Under the pieces are notes generated by a model. It saw only the letters and a program-made list of their open reading frames with translations. It was not told the DNA's origin and made no database searches. A stretch of DNA of 64,000 nt from a virus. Its lineage: Duplodnaviria; Heunggongvirae; Uroviricota; Caudoviricetes. Made by a program: the position numbers and the translations under genes. Location of the stretch: the IMG/VR virus record IMGVR_UViG_2596583652_000001, positions 1 through 64,000 of that record. The stretch is one strand, 5' to 3'. Of the stretch, positions 3,350 to 42,996 are shown one piece after another (the stretch's first letter is position 1; the number at the start of each line of letters is the position of its first letter).

Positions 3350-3857
3350 CGTGAATTCGGTTGTCGCCGACAGCCTGGCCTCGATCCTGGCGATCAACAC
3401 CAAGATCGAACGCCTCAACGAAGAAGCCAAGACCGAGCGCCAGAAGGCCCTCGCTCCGTTCCTCGAGGCTCTGGCGAAGTCCGGCGAGGTCTCGGCGATC
3501 ATCGTCCGCGGCTACACGCCGGGCTTCAATGACGGCGAGCCCTGCGAGCACTCCGCGGACGTCTTCGTCAATATCGAGGAGATCTACGGAGAAGACCTGC
3601 AGGATACTGATGCCGGCGGCAACCTGCCGGAAGAGCTCTTCGAGGAACTCTCCTATGGCTCCGCCGACGCCAATCGGGAGCTGTGCACCAAGTTCGGCCA
3701 TGTCTACGACAAGCCGTCGGCGGAGATCATGAACGCCATCCGGACCCTGATCTTCGCGACCGCCGAGGAGGAGAACAGCACCAACTACTTCCTCTCTTAC
3801 GTGCTCAAGGACGGCAAGTTCGAGATCGCCTCGGGCGAATACGACTGCGGCTATTGA
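3342..3857 (+). CDS. hypothetical protein
   Basis: ATG at 3342 preceded by AGGAGAAAAG. In frame with track ORF 2934..3857 (MPDVNSVVADSLASILAINTKIERLNEEAK...). Confidence 0.5.
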   Translation: MPDVNSVVADSLASILAINTKIERLNEEAKTERQKALAPFLEALAKSGEVSAIIVRGYTPGFNDGEPCEHSADVFVNIEEIYGEDLQDTDAGGNLPEELFEELSYGSADANRELCTKFGHVYDKPSAEIMNAIRTLIFATAEEENSTNYFLSYVLKDGKFEIASGEYDCGY

Positions 3858-3878
3858 TCGAGCGCGGGTAGACGCACC

Positions 3879-4478
3879 ATGACCAAGATGATTTTCAACG
3901 CCCACAAGCCAGTCGTCACCCATTTGGGCGCCTTGCCTGCGATCGGTGACGACTGGCCGGTCGATGATTGGAAATATGCGGACGTGGAGTTCGTCTACCC
4001 GCGCACGACCGATCTTGTCCGGACGGTCATCGACCGTGCGCCGATCACGGGCAAGTTCAAGCGGGTCCTGATCGACGTGAAGGTGCAGGATCTCACACCC
4101 GAGTTCTGCTCCTGCATTCCCGGTTGGCATCTCGACGGCGCTTTTCCCAAGCCGGGTGCGCTGCCAGACCATCACCACCTGTTCGTGATGAACGGGCCGC
4201 TGACCGAGTTCATCGACGAGCCAGTGGCCTGCGAGGTGAGCTATCCCGTCGACATGCCGGCGATCCTGCGGCAGATCCCGCGGAATGTCCGGATCGGCAC
4301 CTGCGCGCCGAATGCCATCACGACCTTCACCAGCTACGACTTCCATCGTGGCGTCACGGCGAGCGCGCCAACGCGCCGCCTGCTTGTGCGGCTGACCGAG
4401 ACGAACACGGTCTTCGCAAGGAACACTCCGAAGGCGCCGAGCCAGGGCGCCCGGACACTCATTGGAGAGGCCGCATGA
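3879..4478 (+). CDS. hypothetical protein
   Basis: 199-aa ORF. Confidence 0.5.
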   Translation: MTKMIFNAHKPVVTHLGALPAIGDDWPVDDWKYADVEFVYPRTTDLVRTVIDRAPITGKFKRVLIDVKVQDLTPEFCSCIPGWHLDGAFPKPGALPDHHHLFVMNGPLTEFIDEPVACEVSYPVDMPAILRQIPRNVRIGTCAPNAITTFTSYDFHRGVTASAPTRRLLVRLTETNTVFARNTPKAPSQGARTLIGEAA

Positions 4479-9595: not shown

Positions 9596-9645
9596 ATCAT
9601 GTATTTATCTAGATATCATAAATGCAGATTTAGCTAATTAGCTAA
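9596..9645. promoter_or_regulatory. operator-like palindromes in an AT-rich promoter region
   Basis: TCTAGAT-N9-ATCTAGA followed by the perfect 16-bp palindrome TTAGCTAATTAGCTAA, just upstream of the 9650 ORF. Shares GATTTAGCTA with the repeats at 21750. Confidence 0.45.
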
Positions 9646-9649
9646 TTCC

Positions 9650-10072
9650 TTGCGTGTCATGGAGATAATCGTGCGTCTTACAGATTTTCGGAACGCGAGT
9701 CACCGCATTCTTTCAAAGGCAATCGCTGAGGCGCTCGAGCCCGTTGCGGCCAAATACGGAGTGACTCTTACCCCCAACGGCGGCTTGATTGGCGCCTCGA
9801 GCGGCATGATTAAGATCAAGGTGGAACTCGAGGCGGCTCCTGGTCAACCGGCGCGCTCGGACACCCTCTTTGGCTATCACGCCCCGCTGCTCGGCCTGCA
9901 GGCGTCCGACAAGGGGCGCTCCTTCTCCTACAAGAGCGTCCTCTACACCATCAAGGATCTCAACCCCCGCGCGCCGAAGTTCCCGGTCATCGCCGAGCGC
10001 GTCCGGGACGGCGCTCCCTTCAGATTCCCCATCGACGTCGTCAAGCGCGGGCTGCCGGCGCGCGCGGCCTGA
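9650..10072 (+). CDS. hypothetical protein
   Basis: 140-aa ORF. Confidence 0.5.
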   Translation: MRVMEIIVRLTDFRNASHRILSKAIAEALEPVAAKYGVTLTPNGGLIGASSGMIKIKVELEAAPGQPARSDTLFGYHAPLLGLQASDKGRSFSYKSVLYTIKDLNPRAPKFPVIAERVRDGAPFRFPIDVVKRGLPARAA

Positions 10073-13374: not shown

Positions 13375-13428
13375 GCGCCGCCCATCAACCCATAAATGCG
13401 TAACTAGCTATCCAAGGATTTACAGATC

Positions 13429-18027: not shown

Positions 18028-18306
18028 ATGAGCGCCGCCGAGATTGCCCAGCTCCATCAGACCATCCGCCAGCACCGGGCCCGACTGATCGACCTGCTCC
18101 AGAACGATCCCGTCCTGGTTCTTGAGCATGACGGCCTTCGGCTGCCCATTCTGCCCGGCAGAGATCTCCTCCATCCGGCAACCGGTCTGGCCTTCTCCTA
18201 CGAAGAGGCGCGCCGGGAGGAGCTGACGCACGAACTCAACCAGATCACCATGGCTCTCACCCGGCTGAAGGAGCTCGACGCGCCCACTCTCCTCGGGAAG
18301 ATCTAG
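18028..18306 (+). CDS. hypothetical protein
   Basis: ATG at 18028 in frame with track ORF 17896..18306 (MSAAEIAQLHQTIRQHRARLIDLLQ...). Confidence 0.4.
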   Translation: MSAAEIAQLHQTIRQHRARLIDLLQNDPVLVLEHDGLRLPILPGRDLLHPATGLAFSYEEARREELTHELNQITMALTRLKELDAPTLLGKI

Positions 18307-19458
18307 CCCACGGGATCCGCCCGCACACCTTCCCGGCGCCAACATAATGTAAAGCTCTGCGTCAAACTCCGCCTCACCAGGCCCGAAAAGACCCCTCCCC
18401 TCTTCCCCGGAAATTCTCCGTCTATCTACCCGGATAGATAGAAGTGTTACGCTATGTTGTCGGAGTTTTACCTAAATCGGCCATTTCGGCCCTTTTCAGC
18501 GAAATGACCCAGTTTCGCGTCGTCACTCTAGAGCGATAGATAGACGCGAACCTGATTTACAGATCTAGCTAGATAGCTAGAGACGCATGCACAGCGTCGG
18601 GATGCACTCAGAGCAGCGCAGATAGCTATCGACGCATCCGCAGCGCTCAGCGACGCGCTCTGACGATCTCAGCACGCGAACCACTGAGAAAGCTAGACCT
18701 GCATCTAGCTAGATAGCTATTCCCTCAGAGAGCACAGACACGAGAGAGCGCGACGCTCAGACGGTGTGCCTCTAGTGAGAGAACGGCCATATGCGTGCAC
18801 TGGACGTGTGACGAGAGCCGGTCGCGAGTGTGTAGCCGCTCGGTGTGAGCAGATATGAGATCGGTGTGAGAGAGTGGTGGGTTCCGCGCCGCGGTTCTCC
18901 TAGGCTTCCCACGGCAAACCATGGCACCTCCGAAAACCCAACCGGACCCATGGAACCGGAATGGCTCGCTCCGCACCTAGGCCCAGCCAGACCCGTCGCC
19001 GCAGCGGAACAGGCAGTCCTGAGCCGGAGAGTCTCTACGCCGGAACATCGCCAGGCTTCTACGCCGGAGAGCCTCGGGAAAGAGGAGGTTTTCCTGACTA
19101 ATTACAAACCCTTTAAGAAGCATACATACTATACAGGCGATGGCACGGGACGTTAGGTCCGGATCGGTCCTATTCCGCACGAGCGGTCCATGGCACATCC
19201 ATGGCTCTCCATGGTTCCGGCTCGCGCGACGGCGGCGCTCCATGGATCAGACCCTTTCGGTGCAGTCATTCCATGGTGAACCATGGGCCGCACAGTATCG
19301 GTTACAGGTTTCGGCGGCTCCCATGCGTGCGCCCTGCGTATTACGACCCTGCCTGCACCTGTCCAACCCAAATATTCACCCATGATTGTTTCGTCTATTC
19401 TCTAATCATCGAAACGCAAGACGCTTTCGACGCAACAGAGAGAAAACGGAGCAAGACA
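18307..19458. repeat. ~1.15-kb noncoding repeat tract (iteron-like; candidate origin or immunity region)
   Basis: No credible ORF. Contains the palindrome TCTATCTAcccggaTAGATAGA (18421-18443), GCGATAGATAGACGCG, three copies of CTAGCTAGATAGCTA-type repeats (18561-18582, 18619-18638, 18689-18720), a CCATGG array (18920-19290), and composite element A (19035-19152). Confidence 0.55.
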
Positions 19459-20316
19459 ATGAGCGACAACACCACCACCGAGAACGAAGCCCTACTGAAC
19501 GTCGCCGATCTCCTCGCCATCGAGGACATCGTGTCCGGTCTCGAGAACGAAGCCGAAGCGCTCGCCGAGACCGAACGCCTGCAGCAGGCTGAGAGCCAGG
19601 CCCAGGCCGAGGTTCAGAACCAGGCCAGCACGGACGAGGCCTCGGCCGAGGCGGGCGACACCGAAGAGCCGGTGCCCACCGAGGCCACCCATGTGCCCGG
19701 CGACCTCAAGGAGATGATGGACGCGGTGCCCCAGGAGGACGTCGACATCAAGATCGCCGCCACTGAGACCGAGTTCAGCGTCCGCGCCGCCTTCGAGAAG
19801 GCGAAGAACCCCTCGAACCTGAAGATGCAGCAGAACCTCACCGCCTACGGCAAGCGGCTCGCTTCGCCGATCGCCGCCAAGGTGCTGTGTGCGACCGATG
19901 TCGATCCGGAGTTCCTCAACCGCGAGATCTCGAACGGCTCGCGCTTCAACGTCTACGCGATGGACAAGGTCGCGGACCTGGTGACGGCACTCTCCGGCGG
20001 CGTGATGCAGAACGCGATCAATCGCGCGATCACCCGCTCGATGTTCAAGTTCCGGGCGGCCGGTGTTCCCTTCACCGGGATCGCGGCCCAGGCGGCGTCC
20101 TCGGACAAGGTGAAGGTCGATCGCAAGCTCGCCCAGCTCCTGATCCGGCACACGGTGAGCGCCGCGACCGCGCCCACCCAGACCTCGAGCACCATGTCGG
20201 CGCTCGCCGTCATGGGCATCGTGCGCAACACGGGCTCGCAGAAGTATCCGGTCTACGAGCTGACCGACACGCCCCAGACGCGGCGTCTGGAGGAAGTGCT
20301 CGCCAAGGCGGCGTAA
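19459..20316 (+). CDS. hypothetical protein with an acidic low-complexity N-terminus
   Basis: ATG at 19459 in frame with track ORF 19201..20316. Preceded by the leader ATCGAAACGCAAG...GAGCAAGACAATG that is shared with the next two cassettes. Confidence 0.55.
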   Translation: MSDNTTTENEALLNVADLLAIEDIVSGLENEAEALAETERLQQAESQAQAEVQNQASTDEASAEAGDTEEPVPTEATHVPGDLKEMMDAVPQEDVDIKIAATETEFSVRAAFEKAKNPSNLKMQQNLTAYGKRLASPIAAKVLCATDVDPEFLNREISNGSRFNVYAMDKVADLVTALSGGVMQNAINRAITRSMFKFRAAGVPFTGIAAQAASSDKVKVDRKLAQLLIRHTVSAATAPTQTSSTMSALAVMGIVRNTGSQKYPVYELTDTPQTRRLEEVLAKAA

Positions 20317-20368: not shown

Positions 20369-20559
20369 GTTGCGGGCGGACGGGACGGGGAACGGCGCAC
20401 CATATGGGCTCCGCCGAAGGGTGGGGAACGGGGAATGGCTCGCTCCGGGCCTAGGGGCGATCAGGTCCCCATTTCCATGGTTCGCCGTGGAGATCCATGG
20501 GTGCGGCGCCGGATGAGGGCACGGATAAGGGTTCCGGGGGTGTGGCCGGCGCCCTGGCT

Positions 20560-20639
20560 GCGCCGTTACACACCTGCCGCAATCCGTGACGTGCGCTCGC
20601 TATAGTTTCAGCATCGAAACACAAACGAGAGACACGACA
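20560..20639 (+). promoter_or_regulatory. promoter/leader cassette copy 2
   Basis: CCGCAATCCG-N-GCGCTCGCTATAGTTTCAGCATCGAAACACAAACGAGAGACACGACAATG, about 85% identical to 21038-21107. TATAGT resembles a -10 hexamer. Confidence 0.4.
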
Positions 20640-20939
20640 ATGCAAGAGATCAGCCGTCAGCAGTTCGATGAAGCTCTGTCCGTTTCGCTGACTGAAGTGT
20701 TCGACGGATTCTTCGGCCGTCATCACATCGAAGTTCTCAAAGGCGACGAGAGGCTCGTCATGCTCGTCGCTGACTGCGAGAAAACCGACTATCACAACTC
20801 GTCATATTTCTACGCGCAGGGCGCGCGTGAGCGCAGCGAGAAGCTGATCGTCACCCGCTACTACGCGCTCAATGCCCTGAGCGAAGCGTATGAGCTGATC
20901 GCCCGCATCACGAACGCGCATTACGAACAGGTCCTGTGA
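20640..20939 (+). CDS. hypothetical protein
   Basis: ATG at 20640 in frame with track ORF 20586..20939. Confidence 0.5.
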   Translation: MQEISRQQFDEALSVSLTEVFDGFFGRHHIEVLKGDERLVMLVADCEKTDYHNSSYFYAQGARERSEKLIVTRYYALNALSEAYELIARITNAHYEQVL

Positions 20940-21037: not shown

Positions 21038-21107
21038 TCCCGCAATCCGCAGATGCGCTCGCTATAGTTCAATCATCGAAACGCAAGAGCGAGACGCGAG
21101 AAACGCC
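21038..21107 (+). promoter_or_regulatory. promoter/leader cassette copy 3
   Basis: CCGCAATCCGCAGATGCGCTCGCTATAGTTCAATCATCGAAACGCAAGAGCGAGACGCGAGAAACGCCATG. Confidence 0.4.
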
Positions 21108-21404: not shown

Positions 21405-21822
21405 ACCGGCCACCATCAGGCCAAGGCGAGGCCAGGCCATTGCGGACCAGGCCAGCCACCTCTCCGGTGGAGCAGGCATCGCCTCCCCTGCCCCACTGAG
21501 CGCCCTGCCGGGTCATGGACCGCCCGGCAGGGTATTTCGCACCTCGGGCAACAGGGCACAGGGCGGATCCCTTGGATTTCCATGGGTGCCCAGAAATGGC
21601 CGCTGACGGGCGCCCGGCATTTGCGGCCCGTTGCTGCTCGCGACCCCTCCTTGCCAGCCAGCGCCCGGCTGTGGCGTCCCCTGCCCCAATATCACGCCCA
21701 CAGCTCGCCCTACCCTGCCGAGCCCGCACAGACCCCTCCGCCACCCAGATTTAGCTAGATACAGATTTAGCTAAACTGTGACTGTCAGCGAATGAGCGCT
21801 GACATCAATCGGAGCAACGACA

Positions 21823-22137
21823 ATGAACCGCACTCTCGACACGCTCGCCGCTCGTGCCGCCAACGACCTCGACATCCTCGAGGCGTGCAAGAACCACACG
21901 GTGCCGCCGGTCGCCGAGAAGCGCCGGGCGCTCGCCGATCTCGTGCGCAAGTCGGGCGACAGCTTCCGGGCAGCGCACGAGCAGTCGGGCGTGACGCTCA
22001 CCGAGTTCCTCGATCTCGCGAGCACGAAGCTGCGTGACATCCGGCGCGGCCGGGCGGCGCTCGCCAAGGAACGCCTCGCGCGCATCGAGCAGGCGAAGCT
22101 CGAGCGGGAAGAGCTGATGGCCGGGCTCGCCGTCTGA
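21823..22137 (+). CDS. hypothetical protein
   Basis: 104-aa ORF. Upstream direct repeats GATTTAGCTAGATACAGATTTAGCTAAA (21750-21778). Confidence 0.45.
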   Translation: MNRTLDTLAARAANDLDILEACKNHTVPPVAEKRRALADLVRKSGDSFRAAHEQSGVTLTEFLDLASTKLRDIRRGRAALAKERLARIEQAKLEREELMAGLAV

Positions 22138-22711
22138 CGCAGCGATGGGGCGCTCGACATGGGCGCCCCTTCATTGCGCCAGGGCAACAGGGCACGGTTC
22201 AGGGCTCCGCCGATTAGGTATGGCTTGGATCAGTGGGATCCCTGGTCGGGCCGCCCGCGCGCCGTGCAGGTCACGGGCGCCGCAGGGGCCCGGGGAAGGT
22301 TCTTGTGAACCTTCCCCTTAGGCGAAGGGCACCCTGAAGACGCCCGAAAGCCGCGGTCCAGGCGAACCGCGGCTTTACAGATTCAGCTATTTGCAGGAAT
22401 GCAGGTTCAGCTATTCAGCTGGAATGGCGCATGTGGCGCCCAGCCCGACCAGGCGGTAGACATCGTCCAGCTCCGGGCCGGCGAGACCGTCTTCCAGGCA
22501 GTCATCGCTCGGCAGCCGGCTCGGCGTGGCAAGGCTGGTCTGCCGGCGCCAGCGGTCGAGATGCCGGCGCTCGGACGTGGTGGTGGCGAGGCTGGAGCGC
22601 ATGCCATCGCCATAGGCGGTGCGCTTGCTGGCGTGTGGGGTTCTAGGCATTTCTGTATCCAGCTATTTGCAGGAATGGCTATATGCAGGAATGGCTGAAG
22701 CTGGATGCCGG

Positions 22712-23055: not shown

Positions 23056-23616
23056 TCACGCGTCGACTTTCTCGCTCTGAATATCGAACGCTTCACAGAG
23101 CGCTTTCGCGAGCTTGTTCACGTTGACGCGATACGTTGCGCGCTTGTCTGCAACGTCAACGAGAATGTTCAGCGTCTTAAGAGCGTCGATCGACGTTTGA
23201 ACTTGCGCAGCGATCGTGCTTTCGTCTTGCGTCACGTTACGCTGATAGACAAGCGCACTCTTGTCATCAGCGATCTTGCGAGACTTTGAAAGCGACGCTT
23301 CGCAATCGCTCTTAGTCAGTTCAAGCGACGATTGAGCGTGCAACATTGCAGTTCTGAAGATCGCATACGTGTTTTCGTTAAGATCGCTCGCGTCGCGCAC
23401 GATAGCTTGATGCGCGAACTTGACGACTTTCTCGCTCGCATACATTGCGCGAGCGAAGCGCTGCGCGTCGACTTTTGCGCTTGTCATGAGCTTCACAAAC
23501 TTGTCATTCGTGAAACGCTTAATCATGTTTTCGAGTTTCTTAATATTCGTCGCGCTTGCATTCTTCTCTTTCGCAACGACGATGCGAGCTTCGAGTGCAG
23601 CGATATAAGCGTTCAT
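23056..23616 (-). CDS. hypothetical all-helical protein encoded in a low-GC island (moron)
   Basis: 186-aa minus-strand ORF. A/T-rich codons, clearly lower GC than the flanks. Convergent with surrounding + strand genes. Confidence 0.5.
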   Translation of the reverse strand: MNAYIAALEARIVVAKEKNASATNIKKLENMIKRFTNDKFVKLMTSAKVDAQRFARAMYASEKVVKFAHQAIVRDASDLNENTYAIFRTAMLHAQSSLELTKSDCEASLSKSRKIADDKSALVYQRNVTQDESTIAAQVQTSIDALKTLNILVDVADKRATYRVNVNKLAKALCEAFDIQSEKVDA

Positions 23617-23905
23617 GATCTTGTCTCTCGTTTGCTTGTCTGCAATGCGTCATTGCTTGCTGACAATTTGATAATAGCGAAGTCTTAGAACGGAACAATG
23701 CAGTTGATGGGGATGCCTATACAACCCCGCGACTTCCCCGGTCCTATCCTCCACTATGCGAGACCGTGTCACCCCGCTGCCCGACGCCCTCTGCCCAGCT
23801 GTCCGCCCTTGCGCACATGAGGCGGCTCCCACCCCAGGAACCGATGCGAGATTTCATGGAACCTCCGCTCTAGCTATCTAGCTGGATAGCTGAATCTGCA
23901 TCGCC

Positions 23906-24014: not shown

Positions 24015-24401
24015 ATGTCCATCACCGATCCGTTCGCCGGCAAGCCGCCCTACCGCGATGACGAGACGCCCCTTCCCTTCGTGCCGTCGATCGAGAAGCA
24101 GCTGCTGGCCGAGCGCCGAGCCCAGATCGCCCAGCTGGGTCGTCCCATCAAGCACCCGGGCCTGCCCGTCGCCGGCTACACCGCCCAGGACCCGGCCAAG
24201 ATCGCCGCGGTGAACGTCAACAAGGAGCTCGAGGAGCGCGTCCTGCGCCAGATCGACAAGCTCAAGCTCGACCAGGAGGGCCTCGAGCCCGATCAGTGCC
24301 TCATCGCCATCGCCCACACCCACATGCAGATCGCCTTCATGGTGCTGAACCGGGCGATCTTTAAGCCCGAGCGCATCAAGCTGCCGGAGGACGGCCAGTG
24401 A
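24015..24401 (+). CDS. hypothetical protein
   Basis: 128-aa ORF. Confidence 0.5.
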   Translation: MSITDPFAGKPPYRDDETPLPFVPSIEKQLLAERRAQIAQLGRPIKHPGLPVAGYTAQDPAKIAAVNVNKELEERVLRQIDKLKLDQEGLEPDQCLIAIAHTHMQIAFMVLNRAIFKPERIKLPEDGQ

Positions 24402-24598
24402 CCCTCATCGGCTGGTGGCTGCTGCCGCTCGTCATCACCGTGCTCGCCTATGGCTGGGCGCTCACCCACATCCTCTCCCTGCGCCAGCTGCTGGCTGATC
24501 CGCTAGGGCCGTTCCTCGTGATCGTGGTCGGCGTGTTCTGCGTCAGCATCGCGACCATCATCACCTTCGCCGCCTGGGCGCTTTGGGCCGTGGCATGA
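24398..24598 (+). CDS. small membrane protein with two transmembrane helices (GTG start)
   Basis: MTLIGWWLLPLVITVLAYGWAL...FLVIVVGVFCVSIATIITFAAWALW. Confidence 0.4.
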   Translation: MTLIGWWLLPLVITVLAYGWALTHILSLRQLLADPLGPFLVIVVGVFCVSIATIITFAAWALWAVA

Positions 24599-25155
24599 GC
24601 ACCATCGCCTATCGCGCCGGCGTCATGGCCGCCGACACAAGGGCCTATTCGGGCTCCAAGGTGCCGATCGGCAACAAGGTGAAGATCTGGCGCATCGAGG
24701 GCGGTGCGCTCATCGGCGTGGCCACAGCCAAGCCCGGGCAGGGCGAGATGTTCGTTCAGTGGGTGCGCGACGGCGCGGACCCGCACAATGCACCCACGAG
24801 CGCGCCGGACTTCGAGGCGCTGCTGGTGCGGCCCAATGGCGAGGCGCTGTTCTTCTACGACAGCTTCCTGCCGTCCGGGCCGCTCATTGCGCCCTACTTC
24901 GCCATCGGCTCGGGCTCGCAATACGCGCTGGGTGCCCTGGCCGTCGGTGCTGGCGCCGAGGCGGCCGTGGCTGCGGCCGTCGAGCTCGACCAGTTCACCG
25001 GCGGTCTGGTGACGCGCCTGGAGCATTTCGAGCCGCTGCCGGACGAGCCGGAGTGTCGCACTGGTGATGATTGGAGTGATCCGGACAGCGATGCCTCTCA
25101 CGAGATCGGCGCCAATCCCGCTTTCGACCCGGTGCCCGCCGATGCCGGCTCCTGA
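24595..25155 (+). CDS. proteasome/HslV-like Ntn-hydrolase family protein
   Basis: ATG at 24595. N-terminus MSTIAYRAGVMAADTRAYSG parallels the 20S beta/HslV signature (TTI....GVVLAADTRAT). AIGSGSQYALGAL parallels HslV AIGSGGPYA. Acidic C-terminal tail. Confidence 0.55.
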   Translation: MSTIAYRAGVMAADTRAYSGSKVPIGNKVKIWRIEGGALIGVATAKPGQGEMFVQWVRDGADPHNAPTSAPDFEALLVRPNGEALFFYDSFLPSGPLIAPYFAIGSGSQYALGALAVGAGAEAAVAAAVELDQFTGGLVTRLEHFEPLPDEPECRTGDDWSDPDSDASHEIGANPAFDPVPADAGS

Positions 25156-25351
25156 CGTCGAAGCGGTTCATCTCGCGCGCCGGCTGGTGCTGCTCGACAA
25201 CGGCACGGTGCGGCCGATCGCGACGCTGCTGGATTGTCTGGGAGAGGAGACGGCGGCCGAGCGCGAGGCGGTGTCGGCGATTGTCGAGGCAATGCCAGGT
25301 GTCTGGCTATGTGTGGATCTCCGGACGTTCGAGGCCGCGCCGCTGCACTAG
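25142..25351 (+). CDS. hypothetical protein
   Basis: ATG at 25142 in frame with track ORF 25064..25351. Confidence 0.3.
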   Translation: MPAPDVEAVHLARRLVLLDNGTVRPIATLLDCLGEETAAEREAVSAIVEAMPGVWLCVDLRTFEAAPLH

Positions 25352-25430
25352 CTAGATAGCTATTCCTGCATTCAGTCATTTCTGTATCTAGCTGGAGCTG
25401 GGTTCAGCTATCGAGCTAGATGCGATCGAA
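25352..25430. repeat. centromere-like repeats (candidate parC/parS)
   Basis: CTAGCTAGATAGCTATTCCTGCATTCAGTCATTTCTGTATCTAGCTGGAGCTGGGTTCAGCTATCGAGCTAGATGCGATCG, immediately downstream of the ParG-like gene. The same repeat families occur at 18561-18720, 23865-23895, 26405-26440 and 27485-27520. Confidence 0.45.
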
Positions 25431-25490: not shown

Positions 25491-25757
25491 TCAGTCCTTC
25501 AGCTCCTTCTGCCGTGCTTCCCACGCCTCGAAGGACTGAATCAGGAGATCCTTCATGGACAGGTCGTGCATCGAAGCCGTCGCCTTGAACCGGCGGTGCC
25601 AGGTCTTGGGCATGTTGAAGGTCATGGCGGTGTAGGGCTCACCGTTCATGTTGTTCGCCGCTTCCTTCGGCGCCGCGGCGATCGCGGCCGCGCCTAGGAA
25701 AGACGCCTTCTGCGGCCGCACCGGCGCCGCCTTCGTCTTCGGCTTTTCCTCGCTCAT
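25491..25757 (-). CDS. small basic partition protein, ParG/ribbon-helix-helix-like centromere binder
   Basis: 88 aa with a Lys/Ala/Pro-rich flexible N-terminus and a short C-terminal structured region. Overlaps parA by 4 bp (ATGA). Confidence 0.5.
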   Translation of the reverse strand: MSEEKPKTKAAPVRPQKASFLGAAAIAAAPKEAANNMNGEPYTAMTFNMPKTWHRRFKATASMHDLSMKDLLIQSFEAWEARQKELKD

Positions 25758-26404: not shown

Positions 26405-26464
26405 TTCTGTATTTACCTATTCAGCTATAGCTGTATATGGCTACCCGATTTGCGTTAACGATGT

Positions 26465-27455: not shown

Positions 27456-27512
27456 TGCCCCTCAGAGCTTGATTTTCCCGATGCAGAACCAGCTATTCAG
27501 CTAGACCTGCAT

Positions 27513-27743
27513 CTAGCTAACGCTGTGATTACCGCTTTCTGTATCGTCGGCGTCGTCCTCGGCCTCGCCGGCGCCCAGCAGCTTCAGCCGCCGGACCATG
27601 CGAGCGAGCTTGCCGCGCAGCTCCTCATTCTCGTCGGTGAGCCGATCATTCTCCTCCGAGAGCCAGGCGAGGGTGACGACCGGCTCGCCGAGCTCGTTGA
27701 AGAAGTGGATCGGGTCGATCTTGCGGGAGGGGAGGGCGCTCAT
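27513..27743 (-). CDS. hypothetical protein, acidic with a coiled coil
   Basis: 76-aa ORF overlapping the helicase stop by 4 bp. Confidence 0.4.
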   Translation of the reverse strand: MSALPSRKIDPIHFFNELGEPVVTLAWLSEENDRLTDENEELRGKLARMVRRLKLLGAGEAEDDADDTESGNHSVS

Positions 27744-29336
27744 GCGGCAATTCCTTCAGCGGCGCCGCGGTTGGCAGCAAAGATGGACCAGTCGAAGTCC
27801 TGCCCGGCCGGCAGAATGCCCTCGACGAAGCCGGGCGTGTTGCGAACGATGTTCTCGCGCTGCCGGGCGTGGTCGCGCAGATAGGTGTTCAGGTTGCAGC
27901 TGTAGTCGGCGATGAAGGTGACGTTCGGCCCGCGCTTCTTGCGCCGCAGACCGCGGCCGATCCGCTGGCGCAGCTGCACCTCGGCCTTCATGCCGCCGAT
28001 GAGCTGGACGAGGGCGATCGCCGGCACGTCGACGCCGACGTCAAGAATGGTGGTGCCGATCACGCCATCGAGCTTGCCGGCGGCGAGGCGCTTGAGCTGG
28101 GTGCGCCGGGCGTCCTGGTCATCCTCGCCCTTGAGGAACTCGTAGGTGAGCCCGGCGTCCTTGTAGAGCTTGAGCAGGTTCGTGCCGTGCTTCTTGCGCG
28201 CGATCAGCGTGAGCACCGGCAGCCGGTAGATCGCGGCCATCTTGGCGTCGGTCACGGCCTGGGCGTGCATGTGCGGGTTCTCGACATAGCCGAGCTCATA
28301 GGCGCGCTCGAAGGGCGAGGTCTTGCGCAGCTTCTCGGGCGCGGGCACGTCGGCGAACTTGAAGATCGGCTTGGCGAGAATGCCGCGCTGGATGAGCAGC
28401 TCCTCGGGGATATTGATGAGGATCGGCCCGAAGGCGGCCATCAGGCGCATATTGTCGGCCGCCGAGTCGCGCATGAACGGCGTCGCCGTGAGCGCGACCC
28501 GGATCGTGGCGTTCTTGCAGTGGCGCAGGATCTCGTAATAGCTGTCGCCGCCGGCCTCGTGCGCCTCCTCGCCGATGACGACCTCGATCAGGGACAGGAT
28601 CTGGAGCACCTCGTTGCGCCGGCGCGTCTTGCGATCGAACGCCTCCTGGGCGAGCCGGGTGATCTCCTCATTGCTCATGTCGGCGTTCTTGTTCTTCGAC
28701 AGGTGGATCGATTTCACGATCGCCCGGCGCTCGACGCCGAGATCGGGCACCTGCAGCGCCTGCACCAGCGTCTGAACCATGCCGAGATTGACGCCGCGCA
28801 CGACGCGCATCTCGCCGTCGCCGATCTGCCCGGTGTTGAGGCCGATCGCCTTGAGCTGGTCGTCCATCTGGTAGAGGAGAATGCCGCGCGTGGTCAGGAA
28901 CAGCGTCATGCGTCGGTAGCGCGCCATGATCAGCTTGGCGATCTTCGACTTGCCGCCGCCGGTCGCCACCCGAATGATGCCGGCCCCGTGCTTCTCGACC
29001 TGGCGCAGCGCCTTCATCTGGTAGTCGTAGTCGGGATCGTCATTGCCGAACTCGTCGACGATCGGATTCTCCGGACCGAGCGGGCTCGCATGCGGCCGGC
29101 AGATACGGTTGACCGTGTGCCCGATGCGCGTCAGCTCCGCCTGCATCAGATGCACGAAGCCGGCCGGAAAGGTGTTCGTGATCACGTCGTAGAAGGACGA
29201 CTTGCCGCTCCAGGAGCCGCCCAGCCCCGCATCGACCTGATAGGACAGCAGCGATGTGGCGAATGCGGCGACCTCGCGGGACGGGTCGATCAGCTTCGCA
29301 ACGACCGCATTATGAGCGAGCTGGACGGTGGCCATG
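27740..29336 (-). CDS. DEAD/DEAH-box (SF2) helicase
   Basis: ATG at 29336 (MATVQLAHNA...). Walker A VATGGGKSKI, DEAH box IGEEAHEAG, motif III LTATP, and a C-terminal RecA-like domain with QLRQRIGRGLRR. Confidence 0.8.
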
Positions 29337-29373
29337 GAGATTCCTTCGGGTTGCCTATTGCCTTGTGGTCCGA

Positions 29374-29400
29374 ATATAGTAAGTAAGCACATACATCATT
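29374..29400. promoter_or_regulatory. palindromic motif copy in a divergent promoter region
   Basis: TAGTAAGTAAGCACATACATCAT lies between the minus-strand helicase start (29336) and the + strand ATG at 29415. Confidence 0.45.
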
Positions 29401-29414
29401 TGGACCTATTCCGC

Positions 29415-30143
29415 ATGCTCAAGCCTGAATTTTCCAGCGTTTCCGTCGGGCTCCTGCGGCCGAATCCCTGGAACACCAACCGCGTCGCCGCCGACAATGA
29501 GGCCAAGATCCGCGCCTCGATCGAGCGCAACGGTCTGTTCAAGCCGATCGTCGTCCGCCAGGTGAAGGATGTTGCGGGCTACGAGATCATCGGCGGCGAG
29601 CATCGCTGGGAGCAGGCCAAGGAACTCGGCATGACCGAGGTCCCGATCTGCAATCTCGGCTTCATCAGCGAGAAGCAGGCCAAGGAAATCGGCGTCATCG
29701 ACAATGCGCGCTACGGCGCCGATGACACGCTGTCCTTCGCCGAACTTCTGAAGGAGCTCGGCGATGCGGATGAGCTGCAAGAATTCCTTCCCTACGGCGA
29801 GACCGATCTGAATGCGATCTTCTCTGCATCAGATATAGCGCTGGACTCGTTGGAAATTGACGAGAGCTTCGAGCGCGAGGCCGAGGCCGCCGAGGAGGAA
29901 GGTCCCGTCACCCGCCCGGCCAAGACCCATGCCGTGATGCGCTTCAAGCTCAGCCTGGGCGACGCCGAGCGCGTCACTGCCCTGATCTCCCGGACCCAGA
30001 AGGAGCAGGGCCTCACCACGGCCGACGACCTCACCAATGCCGGCGACGCTCTCGTTCACCTGCTGCAGAGCCTTCTGCCCAAGCCCGTTCACCTCGCGGA
30101 CGAAGACGAGATCGACGCCGCGCTCCAGGAAATCGCGTCATGA
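29415..30143 (+). CDS. ParB-like nuclease domain protein (paralog 1)
   Basis: ATG at 29415 in frame with track ORF 29328..30143. ParB/Srx fold signature: PNPWNTNRV...IIGGEHRWEQAKELG. Confidence 0.65.
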   Translation: MLKPEFSSVSVGLLRPNPWNTNRVAADNEAKIRASIERNGLFKPIVVRQVKDVAGYEIIGGEHRWEQAKELGMTEVPICNLGFISEKQAKEIGVIDNARYGADDTLSFAELLKELGDADELQEFLPYGETDLNAIFSASDIALDSLEIDESFEREAEAAEEEGPVTRPAKTHAVMRFKLSLGDAERVTALISRTQKEQGLTTADDLTNAGDALVHLLQSLLPKPVHLADEDEIDAALQEIAS

Positions 30144-30814
30144 GCCACACGTCGTCGATCGAGATTTGGGATATCGAGAAGATCATCCCCTATGAGGCGA
30201 ACGCCAAGAAGCACCCCAAGGAGCAGGTGAAGAAGCTTGCCCAGGCAATCACCAAGTTTGGCTGGACTCAGCCGATCGTGGTCGATGTTGATGGCGTGAT
30301 CATCGCCGGCCACGGCAGGCGTCTCGCCGCGCTGGAGCTGAAGCTCACCAAGGTGCCGGTCATTCACCGGGCCGACCTGACCAAGGCCGAGGCGGACGCG
30401 CTGCGCCTCGCCGACAACCGGGTGGCCTCGACCGATTACGACCAGGCGCTGATCCAGGACGAACTGCGCCGGCTCGCGGATGAGCTCGAGGGCTCCCAGA
30501 TCACGCTCCTCGATATCGGCTTCGACGAGAAGGAGCTCGAATTCACCATGAGCGACCTGGGCGAGGTCAATGACGACTTCTTCGTCGAGGACGTCGGCGA
30601 GGCGGTCGAGCAGCAGAAGAAGGAGAACGCCAAGGCGATCGAGGCGACGGACGACGTCGCCGCGCCGATCGGTGACGCCTTCGGCTTCAAGCGTGTCTCC
30701 ATTGCCCAGTCGCGCGCCATCCGCGAAATGATGAGCACCATCGAGACCTCGACCGGCAAGGTGGGGCCCGAGGCGCTGATCCTGTTCCTTTCCGACGCCC
30801 TCAATCGTAAGTGA
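30140..30814 (+). CDS. ParB-like nuclease domain protein (paralog 2)
   Basis: IIPYEANAKKHPKEQ...IIAGHGRRLAALEL is the classic ParB N-terminal box. ATGA overlap with paralog 1. Confidence 0.65.
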   Translation: MSHTSSIEIWDIEKIIPYEANAKKHPKEQVKKLAQAITKFGWTQPIVVDVDGVIIAGHGRRLAALELKLTKVPVIHRADLTKAEADALRLADNRVASTDYDQALIQDELRRLADELEGSQITLLDIGFDEKELEFTMSDLGEVNDDFFVEDVGEAVEQQKKENAKAIEATDDVAAPIGDAFGFKRVSIAQSRAIREMMSTIETSTGKVGPEALILFLSDALNRK

Positions 30815-30828
30815 GCGCATACTTATGG
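30804..30828. promoter_or_regulatory. palindromic motif copy (CGTAAGTGAGCGCATACTTATGG)
   Basis: Occupies the whole 10-bp gap between the stop at 30814 and the ATG at 30825. It overlaps both codons. Confidence 0.45.
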
Positions 30829-31241
30829 ACCCGATGCCGGCCAGCAATGTCATCTCGCTGAAGTCCCGCAAGCCGCTCGAGGTCGAGCAGGCCGAGCTCC
30901 TCGCCGCGGCCGAGATCAATGCCGCCGAAGCGGCCCTGCAGCAGGCCGACTGTGAGGAGCACCAGCTCCAGGCGCTCACCGACATCCGCGAGCGCCTGAT
31001 GAAGGGTGATATCACCGGCTTTGTCGTGGTCGCGCTGTCGCCGAGCGGCGTCTTTCTCACCGAGGTCGCCATTCCCGCCTCCGCCAAGCCGGTCGAGGTC
31101 ATGGCCTATTCGGGCGCGCTCAACGCGGTGAACCTCGAGCTCACCGACATGGCCCAGATGCTGCCCCAGATGCTCAATGACGGCAGCATCATCACGCCGG
31201 AGGAGCCGATCTACGAGGAAGCCTACGAGGATGACGTCTGA
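30825..31241 (+). CDS. hypothetical acidic protein
   Basis: 138-aa ORF. Confidence 0.5.
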   Translation: MDPMPASNVISLKSRKPLEVEQAELLAAAEINAAEAALQQADCEEHQLQALTDIRERLMKGDITGFVVVALSPSGVFLTEVAIPASAKPVEVMAYSGALNAVNLELTDMAQMLPQMLNDGSIITPEEPIYEEAYEDDV

Positions 31242-33759: not shown

Positions 33760-34440
33760 ATGACGTCTCCGGCGGAGGAAGAGAACGAGGTTGAAGGAAC
33801 CGGCGCTGAAGACGCATCCGGTCCCGGCCGGCGTTTGACCGATGCCGAGTTTGCCGAGATCCGGGAGCTCTATGAGCTCGGCAAGGCCGGGCTGAGCGAG
33901 CTCGCCACCACCTACAAGATCTCGCGCCAGACGCTCTCCCGGCGTTTCAAGGATGTCGGCGCTAAGAAGGGCTCGCGGGCCCATGAGCTGGCTGCTGCGG
34001 CCAAGAAGGCCGCGGTCGCGGCGACGGGTGTTTCCGCCGGCGCCACCATCGAGCGCTTCGCCGACCGGCGCGCCGAGTGGATCGAAGAGACCCGGATGAA
34101 CGGCTACCAGGCGCTCAAGGAAGCGCGCCTGATCGGCCGCAAGATCATGTCGGAGAACCTGCGCGCGACGCCTCCGCGGCCGATGGCGCATATCGACGAC
34201 GATCTGAAGGCGCTCGCCCGCTACAACAAGCTGCTGATCGACAACATCGCCGCCAGCATCGAGCTGCTGCAGGCCAACGACCATGTCGATGAGACCACGC
34301 TGCCCTCGCTGTCGATCGAGGATCTCACCGACGACGACATCCTCGAGCACCACAAGAACATCGGCGCGCTCCCCGAGGATGCGACGGTCGCCGACATGCT
34401 CGCGGAGAATGATGAGGATGGCGAGGAGGGCTCGCCGTGA
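33760..34440 (+). CDS. terS: terminase small subunit (candidate)
   Basis: 226 aa. N-terminal HTH (LSELATTYKISRQTLSRRFKDVG). Its stop overlaps the GTG start of terL. Confidence 0.55.
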   Translation: MTSPAEEENEVEGTGAEDASGPGRRLTDAEFAEIRELYELGKAGLSELATTYKISRQTLSRRFKDVGAKKGSRAHELAAAAKKAAVAATGVSAGATIERFADRRAEWIEETRMNGYQALKEARLIGRKIMSENLRATPPRPMAHIDDDLKALARYNKLLIDNIAASIELLQANDHVDETTLPSLSIEDLTDDDILEHHKNIGALPEDATVADMLAENDEDGEEGSP

Positions 34441-35705
34441 GGAGCGGGCTCTCGCTGAAGCTGCACAAGCTCCAGAAGCTGGTCCTGCGCGATCCCCGGC
34501 GCTTCCGGGTGATCGTCGCCGGCCGGCGCTGGGGCAAGACGCAGCTCTCCAAGATCTCCCTGATCCGCTTCGCCACCGAAAAGCAGAAGCAGCTGGTCTG
34601 GTATGTGGCGCCGACCTATCAGATGGCGCGCGACATTCTCTGGGACGACCTGAAGGCGTCGATCCCGGCCCAGTGGGTCCTGAAGATCCACGAGACCCGT
34701 ATGGTCATCTGGCTGATCAACGGCTCGCGCATCCATCTCAAGGGGGCCGACAAGCCCGACACGCTGCGCGGCGTCGGCCTGAACTTCCTCGTCATGGACG
34801 AGGCCCAGGACGTCAAGCAGGAGACCTGGGAGCTGGTGCTGCGCCCCACGCTCGCCAGCACCGGCGGCCGGGCGCTGTTCATCGCCACCCCGAAGAACTT
34901 CAACTGGCTCCACGCCATCTATGTGCTCGGTCAGCGCGGCGCCATCGTCGAGGATGAGCGCGGGCGCCGGGTGCCCAATGACTGGAAGAGCTGGCAGTTC
35001 CCGACCATCACCTCGCCCTTCATCCCGAAGAGCGAGATCCGTCAGGCCCGGCGCGACATGGATCCGCGCTCCTTCCGCCAGGAGTTCGAGGCGAGCTTCG
35101 AGACCATGTCCGGCCGGGTCTATTACCCGTTCGAGCGCGGCGAGCATGTGGGCGACTATCCCTACAATCCGGCGCTACCGATCTATGTCGGCATGGACTT
35201 CAACATCGACCCGATGTCGATGATCATCATCCAGGAGCAGCACAATGGCGAGATCTGGGTGGTGGATGAGGCGGTGCTGCCGGGCTCCAACACCCAGGAA
35301 GCGGCCGACGAGCTCGGCCGGCGCTACTGGAAGCGGATGAACGCACTCTCGATCTATCCCGATCCGGCCGGCAACAATCGCAACCATGACCGTGGCGAGT
35401 CCTCGCTCGACATTCTGCGCGAGGCCGGCTTCCGCAACATCTACTACAAGCGCAAGCATCCGCTGGTCATGGACCGGGTGAACGCCGTCAATCGCCTGCT
35501 GCGCACGGCCGAGGGTCAGGTCCGCCTGCGCGTCGATCGCAAGTGCCGCAAGTTCATCGATAGCCTCGAGCAGACCATCTACAAGGAAGGCTCGCGCGAG
35601 GTCGACAAGAGCAAGGGCACCGAGCACGCGGCGGACGCTTTCGGCTATTACGCTGACTTCCGGCACCCGGTGATCAAGCCGAAGATCCTCGGCATATCTC
35701 TTTGA
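34437..35705 (+). CDS. terL: terminase large subunit
   Basis: Walker A VIVAGRRWGKTQ, Walker B LNFLVMDEAQDV, and a C-terminal RNaseH-like nuclease region with acidic residues (GMDFNIDP...DEAV). Confidence 0.9.
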   Translation: MRSGLSLKLHKLQKLVLRDPRRFRVIVAGRRWGKTQLSKISLIRFATEKQKQLVWYVAPTYQMARDILWDDLKASIPAQWVLKIHETRMVIWLINGSRIHLKGADKPDTLRGVGLNFLVMDEAQDVKQETWELVLRPTLASTGGRALFIATPKNFNWLHAIYVLGQRGAIVEDERGRRVPNDWKSWQFPTITSPFIPKSEIRQARRDMDPRSFRQEFEASFETMSGRVYYPFERGEHVGDYPYNPALPIYVGMDFNIDPMSMIIIQEQHNGEIWVVDEAVLPGSNTQEAADELGRRYWKRMNALSIYPDPAGNNRNHDRGESSLDILREAGFRNIYYKRKHPLVMDRVNAVNRLLRTAEGQVRLRVDRKCRKFIDSLEQTIYKEGSREVDKSKGTEHAADAFGYYADFRHPVIKPKILGISL

Positions 35706-42544: not shown

Positions 42545-42954
42545 TCTTCGACATCCTTGAGCACAAGATCGCCGCCGCCGGCCTTGGCGTGCCAGGTGAA
42601 AGCCTGTTTCGCGGCACCATGCCGGCCGAATGCACGGTTGGCGTGCTCTTTCGCATGCCGCTCGAGGGCATCCCCGTCGATCCGCACATTGTCGGCTGGC
42701 ACAAGCCGCGTCTGCAGGTGATCGTGCGCCACACCGACCCGGTCCAGGGCGAGGCGCTCGCCAACAAGGTCATCAAGACGCTGCTGGTCGAGCACCCGGA
42801 AGATCACCCGGCGACCGCGGAGCGGGGCAGGGCGCGCATCACGGTGTTCTACCCGGCCCAGCTGCCGATCCAGTTTCCGATGCTGGAAGGCAATGCCATC
42901 GAGTGGTCGCTGAACTTCCGCACGGCCTTTTCTGTCGAGCCGGCCTGGAAATAG
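42541..42954 (+). CDS. tail completion protein (candidate)
   Basis: Assigned by position immediately before the major tail protein. Confidence 0.45.
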   Translation: MIFDILEHKIAAAGLGVPGESLFRGTMPAECTVGVLFRMPLEGIPVDPHIVGWHKPRLQVIVRHTDPVQGEALANKVIKTLLVEHPEDHPATAERGRARITVFYPAQLPIQFPMLEGNAIEWSLNFRTAFSVEPAWK

Positions 42955-42996
42955 CTACATACAGGTGTAGCTATTTGCGTGGACTTCCCACGGATG

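Follow-up and report, generated by a model that had tools for sequence, protein, structure and literature searches.

RHEph10/pLM21S1-type elements are phage-plasmids of ~115–122 kb that occur throughout the order Hyphomicrobiales (Rhizobium, Sinorhizobium, Shinella, Methylobacterium, Ancylobacter), and their maintenance and switching are almost unexplored. One group of plasmid-like prophages, whose replicon is RepC-like, has been described with pLM21S1 and RHEph10 as its archetypes (PMC4447125). Among the siphophages, B1VFA and V1VFA-S carry parA, parB and repC, and the ~122-kb genome of B1VFA has fixed ends with 3.6-kb direct terminal repeats (PMC12509600). In the partition system of TP228, the OF operator and the parH centromere are built from ACTC boxes with 4-bp AT-rich spacers, with one ParG dimer per box (PMC3130281). 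Here we analyzed a 64,000-nucleotide stretch of DNA (positions 1 to 64,000 of IMG/VR record IMGVR_UViG_2596583652_000001; hereafter the window), which is part of a ~114-kb RHEph10/pLM21S1-type phage-plasmid of Ancylobacter rudongensis, and we focused on its coding-free tract at 18307–19458. This tract is the most conspicuous conserved non-coding feature of these elements.

Other plasmid systems provide further points of comparison. KorB of RK2, a ParB-family protein with a helix-turn-helix that acts at OB sites, and omega of pSM19035, which reads 7-bp heptads, are global regulators that double as centromere-binding proteins. The parC locus of R1 consists of two sets of ~11-bp direct repeats around a promoter core and is coated cooperatively by ParR, and the plasmid prophage N15 has several centromere sites dispersed in its genome.

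Comparing the window with these systems and with its own relatives, we tentatively propose, with a confidence that falls a little short of even, that the tract is a compound control region on which a ParG-like protein and a second protein, probably a winged-helix protein, sit in ordered arrays and couple partition with gene control. Its limits are as follows (in this and the later lists, a strand is named for features that have one).

18307 to 19458: whole coding-free tract, from the stop codon of an open reading frame (ORF) of 92 aa (18306) to the ATG of a 285-aa gene (19459)

The initial annotation had described the tract as free of ORFs, and this was borne out. We found 26 stop-free stretches of 35 codons or more overlapping 18250–19520, and tblastn (E ≤ 1e-3) matched none of them in ~90 related loci, a search in which the flanking gene did match. 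The Prokaryotic Genome Annotation Pipeline (PGAP) leaves a homologous gap without coding sequence in five of six related plasmids, the sixth (a M. oryzae plasmid) carrying one small minus-strand ORF. All 12 annotated or gene-called relatives have a gap of 1.1–1.5 kb upstream of the homologue of the 285-aa gene, with no coding sequence or a doubtful small one.

We compared 54 non-identical tracts from genomes, IMG/VR and metagenomes. More than 50 relatives share the length and position of the tract and the order of its elements, with a flanking protein that is only 35–60% identical. Only two short blocks of the window can be aligned by sequence across the 54 tracts (18876–18931 and 19374–19446), and the element order is common to the relatives although the primary sequence has almost wholly diverged. 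This order starts at the 5' end with short repeated words that differ by sub-group, followed by a T-poor zone with NAGAG words (most often 14–18 nt apart) and a G-rich stretch. The palindrome CCGCGCCGCGG, which is exact in the window and nine other tracts (10 lineages), comes next and is followed by a C-rich stretch, a GGAAT...GGAAC-type motif and an AT-rich island with conserved flanks, 130–370 nt before the ATG. CCNNGG clusters and a conserved leader (ATCATCGAAA) complete the series. In the window, the following elements belong to this framework.

18421 to 18442: palindrome TCTATCTA-CCCGGA-TAGATAGA, made of two inverted ATAGATAGA words
18533 to 18548: GCGATAGATAGACGCG, a third copy of the ATAGATAGA word
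18724 to 18883, plus strand: T-poor zone turning G-rich, with NAGAG and GTGAG words, the equivalent of the YAYAGAG words spaced by ~16 nt in relatives
18948 to 18981: single CCATGG, then the motif GGAATGGCTCGCTCCGCACCTAGG, whose counterpart in relatives is CCGGAATTTAGGAACGG
19089 to 19140: AT-rich island (28 of 40 bases AT), with GAGGAGGTT to its left and GATGGCACGGGA to its right
19374 to 19446, plus strand: conserved promoter and leader block (TCTATTCTCTAATCATCGAAACGCAAGACGCTTTCGA), the second block similar in sequence to relatives

The ATAGATAGA words resemble the ATAG-phased boxes in the parA operators of relatives, and the parA operator of B1VFA contains ATAGATAG. ATAGATAGA or its complement occurs twice in the 64 kb, both times within the tract, compared to 0.0 in shuffles. 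Copies related to the leader block lie at 20592–20640 and 21054–21102. Here, the segments 20570–20640 and 21040–21102 are near-identical promoter/leader segments of the form CCGCAATCCG-N7-TGCGCTCGCTATAGTT-CA-TCATCGAAAC-CAA that run up to the start codons (ATG) of two small genes on the plus strand; their -35 region is not sigma-70-like, and related elements encode their own sigma factor. At the 5' ends of four other tracts (L003, L009, L010, L013), we observed a sub-group-specific word of 8–11 bp in 4–7 copies, namely GACCTTTAC in the pLM21S1/B1VFA group, ATGTTGACA in the RHEph10 group and GGGACATCC in Methylobacterium. These words resemble specificity or incompatibility determinants. The switch from G-rich to C-rich at the palindrome CCGCGCCGCGG fits a dif-like or KOPS-like polarity, but without an Xer-type site. 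By eye, the spacing of the GGAAT...GGAAC motif does not fit a sigma-54 site or a site of the extracytoplasmic function (ECF) type, and GAGGAGGTT was rejected as a Shine-Dalgarno sequence because neither the window nor its relatives have a start codon after it.

The first of the two array layers consists of TAGCTA-type words in an 8-nt register. These resolve into 4-bp boxes (AGCT, CTGC/GCAG, ACAG/CTGT, ATAG) with 4-bp AT-rich spacers. There are ~13 arrays of 3–11 boxes each, all intergenic and spread over at least 33 kb. Three are in the tract, and the others start at ~9624, 13398, 21746, 22375, 22645, 23865, 25343, 26393, 27481 and 42945. The arrays and the two partition genes among them are listed here.

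18559 to 18583: box array 1, ACAG-ATCT-AGCT-AGAT-AGCT-AGAG (CTAGCTAGATAGCTA-type), with 8-bp phasing
18620 to 18631: short box element AGATAGCTATCG (CTAGCTAGATAGCTA-type)
18690 to 18723: box array 2, AGCT-AGAC-CTGC-ATCT-AGCT-AGAT-AGCT-ATTC (CTAGCTAGATAGCTA-type), which aligns with TAGCTATTTCC of the tract of a Shinella plasmid
21746 to 21775: box array of two ACAGATTTAGCTA units 16 bp apart, upstream of the gene at 21823
22375 to 22425 and 22645 to 22700: two box arrays that flank a doubtful 79-aa ORF
23865 to 23905: box array in a divergent intergenic region
25343 to 25425: largest array, ~11 boxes, just downstream of the ParG-like gene
25491 to 25757, minus strand: ParG-like 88-aa protein with a disordered N-terminal tail, MTFNMP and two helices; the gene overlaps the parA stop codon
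25754 to 26404, minus strand: ParA-type partition ATPase, 216 aa
26393 to 26445: box array over the parA start codon and upstream region, the presumed operator
27481 to 27525: box array between two minus-strand genes
9624 to 9647: outlying box array GCAGATTTAGCTAATTAGCTAATT, upstream of the gene at 9650
13398 to 13425: outlying box array
42945 to 42975: outlying box array between two structural genes

The boxes are 9- to 10-fold enriched over shuffles. TAGCTA occurs 16 times in the window, compared to 1.8 ± 1.3 in dinucleotide shuffles (maximum 6), with five copies in the tract and 11 in the 18–28-kb region, and AGCT-N4-AGCT occurs 10 times compared to 1.0 in shuffles. The initial annotation had named several of these words, which we found at, or within a base or two of, the places it gave, and had pictured a lattice of binding-site-like words between small genes. 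That picture is accurate. The words recur, as it had reported, at 20465–20500, 21575–21590, 21750–21780, 22375–22700, 23865–23895, 25352–25430, 26405–26440 and 27485–27520. The arrays at ~9624–9647, 13398–13425 and 42945–42975 extend the list.

Next to the largest array lies a pair of genes that resembles a type Ib partition operon. The 216-aa protein matches Pfam CbiA with 28.1 bits (cut-off 25.4) and MipZ with 24.6 bits (cut-off 20.7); it also matches NCBIfam ParA_partition at 9.7e-19, yet with 67.7 bits against a curated cut-off of 180. As in type Ib systems, it is a small Walker-type ParA (~200–220 aa) without an N-terminal DNA-binding domain, and tetramer boxes with 4-bp AT-rich spacers stand upstream of the operon, a likeness in sequence geometry alone. 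The 88-aa protein has a weak RHH_10 match (E = 0.005) and the UniRef name 'ParG protein', and its model consists of a disordered tail, an extended segment and two helices with a G-x-S/N turn. Fold and sequence searches of this protein against solved structures gave no confirmation.

TAGCTA or TAGCGA boxes are found upstream of parA in ~45 relatives. Loci whose ParG-like protein has the MTFNMP strand carry TAGCTA boxes upstream of parA and 8–18 TAGCTA per ~13–19-kb locus, whereas loci with the LNFKV strand carry TAGCGA, 7–29 per locus, and only 0–4 TAGCTA. Since the box sequence changes with the beta-strand of the ParG-like protein across relatives, the boxes are most likely the binding sites of this protein. 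Recognition of the boxes by the adaptor, as in type Ib systems, is thus suggested indirectly, both upstream of parA and locus-wide. The array at 25343–25425 is the best candidate for the main centromere. The initial annotation had proposed a partition function, and the ParG-type boxes (PMC3130281), phased at 8 bp, placed upstream of parA in the window and its relatives and co-changing with the strand, support this part of its reading. We also considered the NAGAG words of the tract as weak ParG boxes and rejected this, as they do not change with ParG type and elements with TAGCGA boxes (RHEph10) keep TAGAG-type words (by eye).

Two observations concern the surroundings of the arrays. A GTTAAC palindrome just upstream of the parA box array (window 26440–26460; ~45–60 nt upstream of parA) is conserved in most relatives. 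The 79-aa ORF (22411–22650, minus strand) between the arrays at 22375–22425 and 22645–22700 encodes a protein rich in R, S, T and P with no match, and the ~220 bp between these arrays may be non-coding.

The second layer consists of CCNNGG words. CCATGG, of which the initial annotation had counted eight or more, occurs exactly eight times in the tract (18919, 18948, 19188, 19199, 19209, 19240, 19271, 19281), whereas ~0.4 are expected per 1.15 kb. What stands out is the clustering, as the 24 copies in the whole window do not exceed the number in shuffles (20.1). The arrays and the adjacent gene are the following.

18884 to 18924: palindrome CCGCGCCGCGG (18884–18894), which opens a four-unit CCNNGG array with 10-bp phasing (18889–18924), at the G-rich/C-rich switch point; one of only two blocks similar in sequence to relatives
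19188 to 19286: six CCATGG words with spacings of 11, 10, 31, 31 and 10 bp, on one helix face
19459 to 20316, plus strand: gene of the 285-aa winged-helix protein, with a variable acidic N-terminus and a conserved C-terminal part
20432 to 20500: second copy of the GGAATGGCTCGCTCC motif, then a three-unit CCNNGG array (20475–20500), in the next intergenic region

The GGAATGGCTCGCTCCGCACCTAGG motif of 18948–18981 is repeated at 20432–20455 with 92% identity. Arrays of at least three CCNNGG at 10–11 bp occur three times in the window (18889–18924, 19188–19214 and 20475–20500), compared to 0.09 in shuffles. In the last 700 nt of the 54 tracts, 116 CCNNGG pairs are 10 bp and 34 are 11 bp apart, with further peaks at 20, 30–31, 40–41 and 50–51 bp. 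The 2.5 kb downstream of the winged-helix gene contain 131 pairs at 10 bp and 44 at 11 bp, whereas the remaining 491 kb of locus DNA contain 18 and 14. In the 54 relatives, the phasing is therefore confined to the tract and the next 2.5 kb. The repeat unit is CCNNGG plus four bases, in which only CC and GG are fixed. Given the spacing of one helical turn, these data suggest that the binding protein occupies a single face of the helix and that its DNA-reading surface is as invariant as the CC and GG are across the family. A methylation or restriction target was rejected as an explanation, because the middle bases vary and the words are clustered rather than avoided.

We searched the 285-aa protein against Pfam, PHROG and NCBIfam and found no match, as for most of the small neighboring proteins scanned. 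Its structural model has a predicted local distance difference test (pLDDT) score of 87 and shows a winged helix in the conserved C-terminal part, which matches generic winged-helix folds only. The putative recognition helix, TxxTQxSSTMxAL, is near-invariant and is the most conserved stretch of a family with at least 126 members, uncharacterized and without a Pfam domain. The winged-helix protein is probably the binder of the CCNNGG arrays, for which it is the best candidate.

Taken together, we envisage the tract as a protein-free landing pad of a plasmid-like prophage for at least two DNA-binding proteins. ParG-like dimers would occupy the 8-bp-phased boxes (TAGCTA, CWGC, ATAG), one per box, as ParG does on OF and parH of TP228, and the boxes of the tract together with about a dozen further arrays would form a multi-site partition complex for ParA. 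During the plasmid state, the box-bound protein would also repress neighboring promoters, in the manner of KorB and omega; a partition adaptor with many promoter-region sites would couple segregation with gene silencing. The CCNNGG words on either side of the AT-rich island and in the next intergenic regions would be coated on one DNA face, likely by the winged-helix protein, which would in this way regulate its own gene along with the downstream small genes. The left part of the tract, with its T-poor, G-rich, palindromic and C-rich sections, would be a rightward non-coding unit that ends in a terminator in most relatives. If true, the box lattice would be a case of a global regulator that is also a centromere-binding protein, inside a tailed phage. 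The box/strand variants (TAGCTA with MTFNMP, TAGCGA with LNFKV) predict testable incompatibility or immunity groups, and the one-turn CCNNGG arrays with their uncharacterized winged-helix family offer a defined protein–DNA pair for biochemistry. The arrays and the tract are also candidate stability or replication modules for vectors in rhizobia and methylotrophs.

Several findings weigh against this model of a compound control region. Most relatives carry merely 0–2 TAGCTA or TAGCGA boxes in the last 1350 nt of the tract, which indicates that the box layer is not the conserved core of the tract. The pairing of the winged-helix protein with the CCNNGG arrays draws only on adjacency and shared invariance. 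A terminator scan of the window tract found none. A promoter-like element and the conserved leader lie ~55 nt before the ATG, and the AT-rich island lies ~300 nt further upstream. The island is thus not needed as a promoter and is left unaccounted for, and a second, phage-mode origin therefore stays a serious rival.

The left part of the tract invites a different emphasis. In ~32 of the 54 relatives, a canonical intrinsic terminator on the plus strand closely precedes the AT-rich island, 340–570 nt ahead of the gene start; the terminator sequences are unrelated and the stems are maintained, which suggests a non-coding transcript. In pLM21S1, where this was checked, the upstream gene is followed by a separate terminator, which argues for an independent transcription unit. 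In the terminator-bearing relatives, the left 0.7–0.9 kb looks like a non-coding transcription unit. It might even be the gene of a long non-coding RNA that is itself the product (e.g., a protein sponge, an antisense regulator or an anti-defence RNA), with the T-poor composition, the repeated YAYAGAG and GTGAG words, a GGAGG...CCUCC clamp round a GC hairpin and the terminator as its features. We consider such a gene, which would not be mutually exclusive with a compound control region, unlikely. In addition to the maintained terminator stems and the separate terminator in pLM21S1, it is supported by one hairpin (alignment columns 185–215) with compensatory and G-U changes on the plus strand, by a plus-strand composition consistently biased to A above T, and by the lack of a conserved ORF. 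The window, however, has neither a terminator nor the ~220-nt hairpin and terminator segment of the Rhizobium group, and the primary sequence has diverged as described above. RNAalifold gave a covariation term of ~0 for 11 relatives. In the window, folding z-scores are ~0 in the conserved core and reach ~-2 to -3 only at the DNA palindromes, on both strands, and neither core folding nor a sliding-window scan gave a strand-specific signal. Rfam 15 has no match to 18200–19600 at E ≤ 1, and a sigma-70 promoter scan recognized none in the window tract or the pLM21S1 tract. The structured non-coding RNAs suggested by the initial annotation are weakly supported in the window itself and partly supported at the level of the family, through the terminators. 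We further observed that in two relatives (L018, Chelativorans composti ~3680–3930, and L061) an almost C-free run of >200 nt with GTGAG, GAGAG and GGGGTGAG words lies upstream of the palindrome, with G minus C at +40 to +54 per 100 nt; the sequence after this run is strongly C-rich.

The rival left open by the AT-rich island is a second (e.g., lytic) origin, in which the island would be the unwinding element, the CCNNGG words the initiator sites and the winged-helix protein the initiator. An R-loop formed by the G-rich non-coding transcript from the left part could be what activates or primes it, by analogy with the ColE1 or T4 origins. On balance this is not likely, though several observations fit it. 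The island is present 130–370 nt before the gene in nearly all relatives, with conserved flanks and 27–36 of 40 bases AT in DNA of 55–63% GC, and it is superfluous as a promoter of the winged-helix gene. The phased one-face sets at 18889–18924 and 19188–19286 lie on either side of it, and a conserved DNA-binding gene follows immediately downstream. The non-template strand upstream is G-rich and C-poor, and transcription in most relatives would end shortly ahead of the island. Since a DnaB-like helicase, a primase and DnaE are encoded by the elements themselves, there must be an origin for the phage mode somewhere. Compared to iteron origins, an AT-rich island that could serve as unwinding element lies beside repeats (19089–19140), but the 10-bp unit with four fixed bases is unlike the classical 17–22-bp iterons, and the winged-helix protein matches no known Rep family. 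The window contains no DnaA-type or CtrA-type sites, and cumulative GC skew does not turn at 18–19 kb. The same arrays recur in the next two to three intergenic regions without an AT-rich island, which looks more like a regulatory role. The documented replicon is of the RepC type and lies elsewhere (PMC4447125). A RepC plasmid origin in the tract was itself rejected, as repC is absent from the window and lies ~55 kb from the tract in pLM21S1; repC of pLM21S1, its neighboring ribbon-helix-helix (RHH) and helix-turn-helix (HTH) genes and its sigma factor have no counterpart in the window. The replication origin proposed by the initial annotation would thus be a second (lytic) one, for which the conserved AT-rich island between phased arrays and beside a DNA-binding gene would be suited. 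Nothing speaks for the immunity function that it had also proposed: no repressor-type gene or operator signature was found in the tract, and the HTH regulator and RHH genes of pLM21S1 are missing from the window. A broader idea strikes us as rather improbable, namely that this is a new type of control locus in which the winged-helix family polymerizes on one DNA face along the CCNNGG words to either side of the AT-rich island, with a long G-rich, C-depleted non-coding transcript upstream that ends shortly ahead of the island, so as to form an R-loop-assisted second origin or a lysis–lysogeny switch separate from RepC. If the island is an origin, it would show how a phage-plasmid separates plasmid-mode from phage-mode replication. 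A role in DNA entry or packaging, as an analogue of the T5 injection stop or as a terminase site at a terminal-repeat boundary, is very improbable. It is suggested by the untranslated region of 1.2–1.7 kb in T5-like phages, rich in ordered repeats, inverted repeats and palindromes, which is conserved though the neighboring genes are not (bioRxiv 10.1101/866236), and by the fixed ends and terminal repeats of B1VFA (PMC12509600). The B1VFA tract, however, lies at 38.8–40.3 kb, at neither end of the record (the record start may differ from the physical end), the DnaA boxes proposed as the defining feature of the T5 region are absent, the terminase gene (34416–35705) is 15 kb away, and the phased arrays reach into neighboring promoter regions. 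Hardly credible is a functionless tract, be it decayed coding sequence or spacer DNA with a few regulatory words by chance. The poorly conserved primary sequence and the unremarkable core RNA folding would agree with it, but not the length, position and element order kept in more than 50 relatives, the extreme phasing and enrichment statistics, or the exact CCGCGCCGCGG in 10 lineages.

The assignment of the window to its element follows from several proteins. An Ancylobacter rudongensis contig of 114,107 bp encodes a protein with 100% identity to the 285-aa winged-helix protein, and the portal protein is 62–69% identical to those of the Rhizobium siphophages RHph_X66, B1VFA, V1VFA-S and RHEph10. 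The window ParA is 58–64% identical to ParA of 115–119-kb plasmids of Pararhizobium, Shinella, Sinorhizobium (pLM21S1) and Rhizobium, and ~51% identical to that of two Methylobacterium plasmids. The window, with a GC content of ~63%, is colinear with ~46–106 kb of pLM21S1. A tRNA search of the window and an Rfam search of the whole window at gathering score found none, and when the tract was compared with phage and plasmid collections by megablast and blastn, a single trivial match was all that emerged. With no close relative of the window, comparison on a fine scale is impossible.

Further observations concern the neighborhood and the element as a whole. A plus-strand gene at 24015–24401 encodes a 128-aa protein with an Acb2/Tad1 hairpin domain (PF24729, E = 4.6e-15), likely a sponge for anti-phage signalling nucleotides, and it sits within the box lattice beside an HslV-like peptidase gene (24583–25155). 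On the minus strand, a 186-aa gene without a family match (23056–23616) occupies the window's lowest-GC kilobase (52.8% vs ~63%), and the box array at 23865–23905 is 250 bp upstream of it; genes of like composition are visible in Methylobacterium plasmids. Two consecutive plus-strand genes with a ParB N-terminal domain (29316–31200) are divergent from a DEAD/ResIII helicase gene (27740–29392) and separate from the ParA/ParG-like pair. GANTC, a CcrM/HinfI-type site, is ~5-fold depleted in the window (1–64000), with 74 copies compared to 359 ± 18 in dinucleotide-preserving shuffles, and occurs once in the tract. A second gene-poor stretch at 30.4–32.7 kb of pLM21S1 (L006) is equivalent to the start of the B1VFA record (L091, 1–520) and may be a terminal-repeat or packaging region.

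Set against the known systems, the locus combines traits of several. Like the T5-type region, ~1.2–1.7 kb of non-coding DNA in a ~120-kb siphophage, the tract has ordered repeats and palindromes and is conserved among relatives (10.1101/866236). The T5 region sits where the terminal repeat ends on its inner side and carries eight DnaA boxes, of which the tract has none. It shares with the iteron origins (pSC101, P1 oriR, lambda ori) an AT-rich island beside phased direct repeats and a winged-helix protein gene, and it differs from them by its 10-bp unit compared to 17–22 bp, by the lack of DnaA boxes and of a Rep-family match, and by a RepC replicon elsewhere. The 10–11-bp CCNNGG blocks (18889–18924 and 19188–19286) around the island resemble parC of R1 in geometry only. 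In contrast to parC, only CC and GG are fixed per 10-bp unit and the arrays continue into neighboring intergenic regions. The neighboring proteins scanned gave no match to the actin-like (ParM) family; the whole element was not searched.

There is also a likeness to TP228 ParF-ParG. The gene of a small ParA-type ATPase precedes that of a small protein whose N-terminal tail is predicted to be flexible and whose C-terminus may be ribbon-helix-helix-like, the degenerate 4-bp boxes stand in direct and inverted orientation with regular 4-bp AT-rich spacers, in arrays of 3–12, and one array covers the promoter/start region of the operon. In contrast to the ACTC boxes of TP228, those of the window are AGCT/CWGC/ATAG, the window protein has no detected sequence match to ParG in the PDB, and the element is a tailed phage-plasmid. 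The 20 boxes of TP228 form a single block in front of the operon, whereas the arrays of the window are scattered over ~13 intergenic sites and at least 33 kb. Unlike KorB, the window candidate is a putative small ribbon-helix-helix protein and not a member of the ParB family. In conclusion, the arrangement resembles that of KorB and omega, in that one partition adaptor would serve many operator sites across the promoter regions of the element, and TTTAGCTAAA (as at 21750–21772) resembles the KorB site TTTAGCSGCTAAA.

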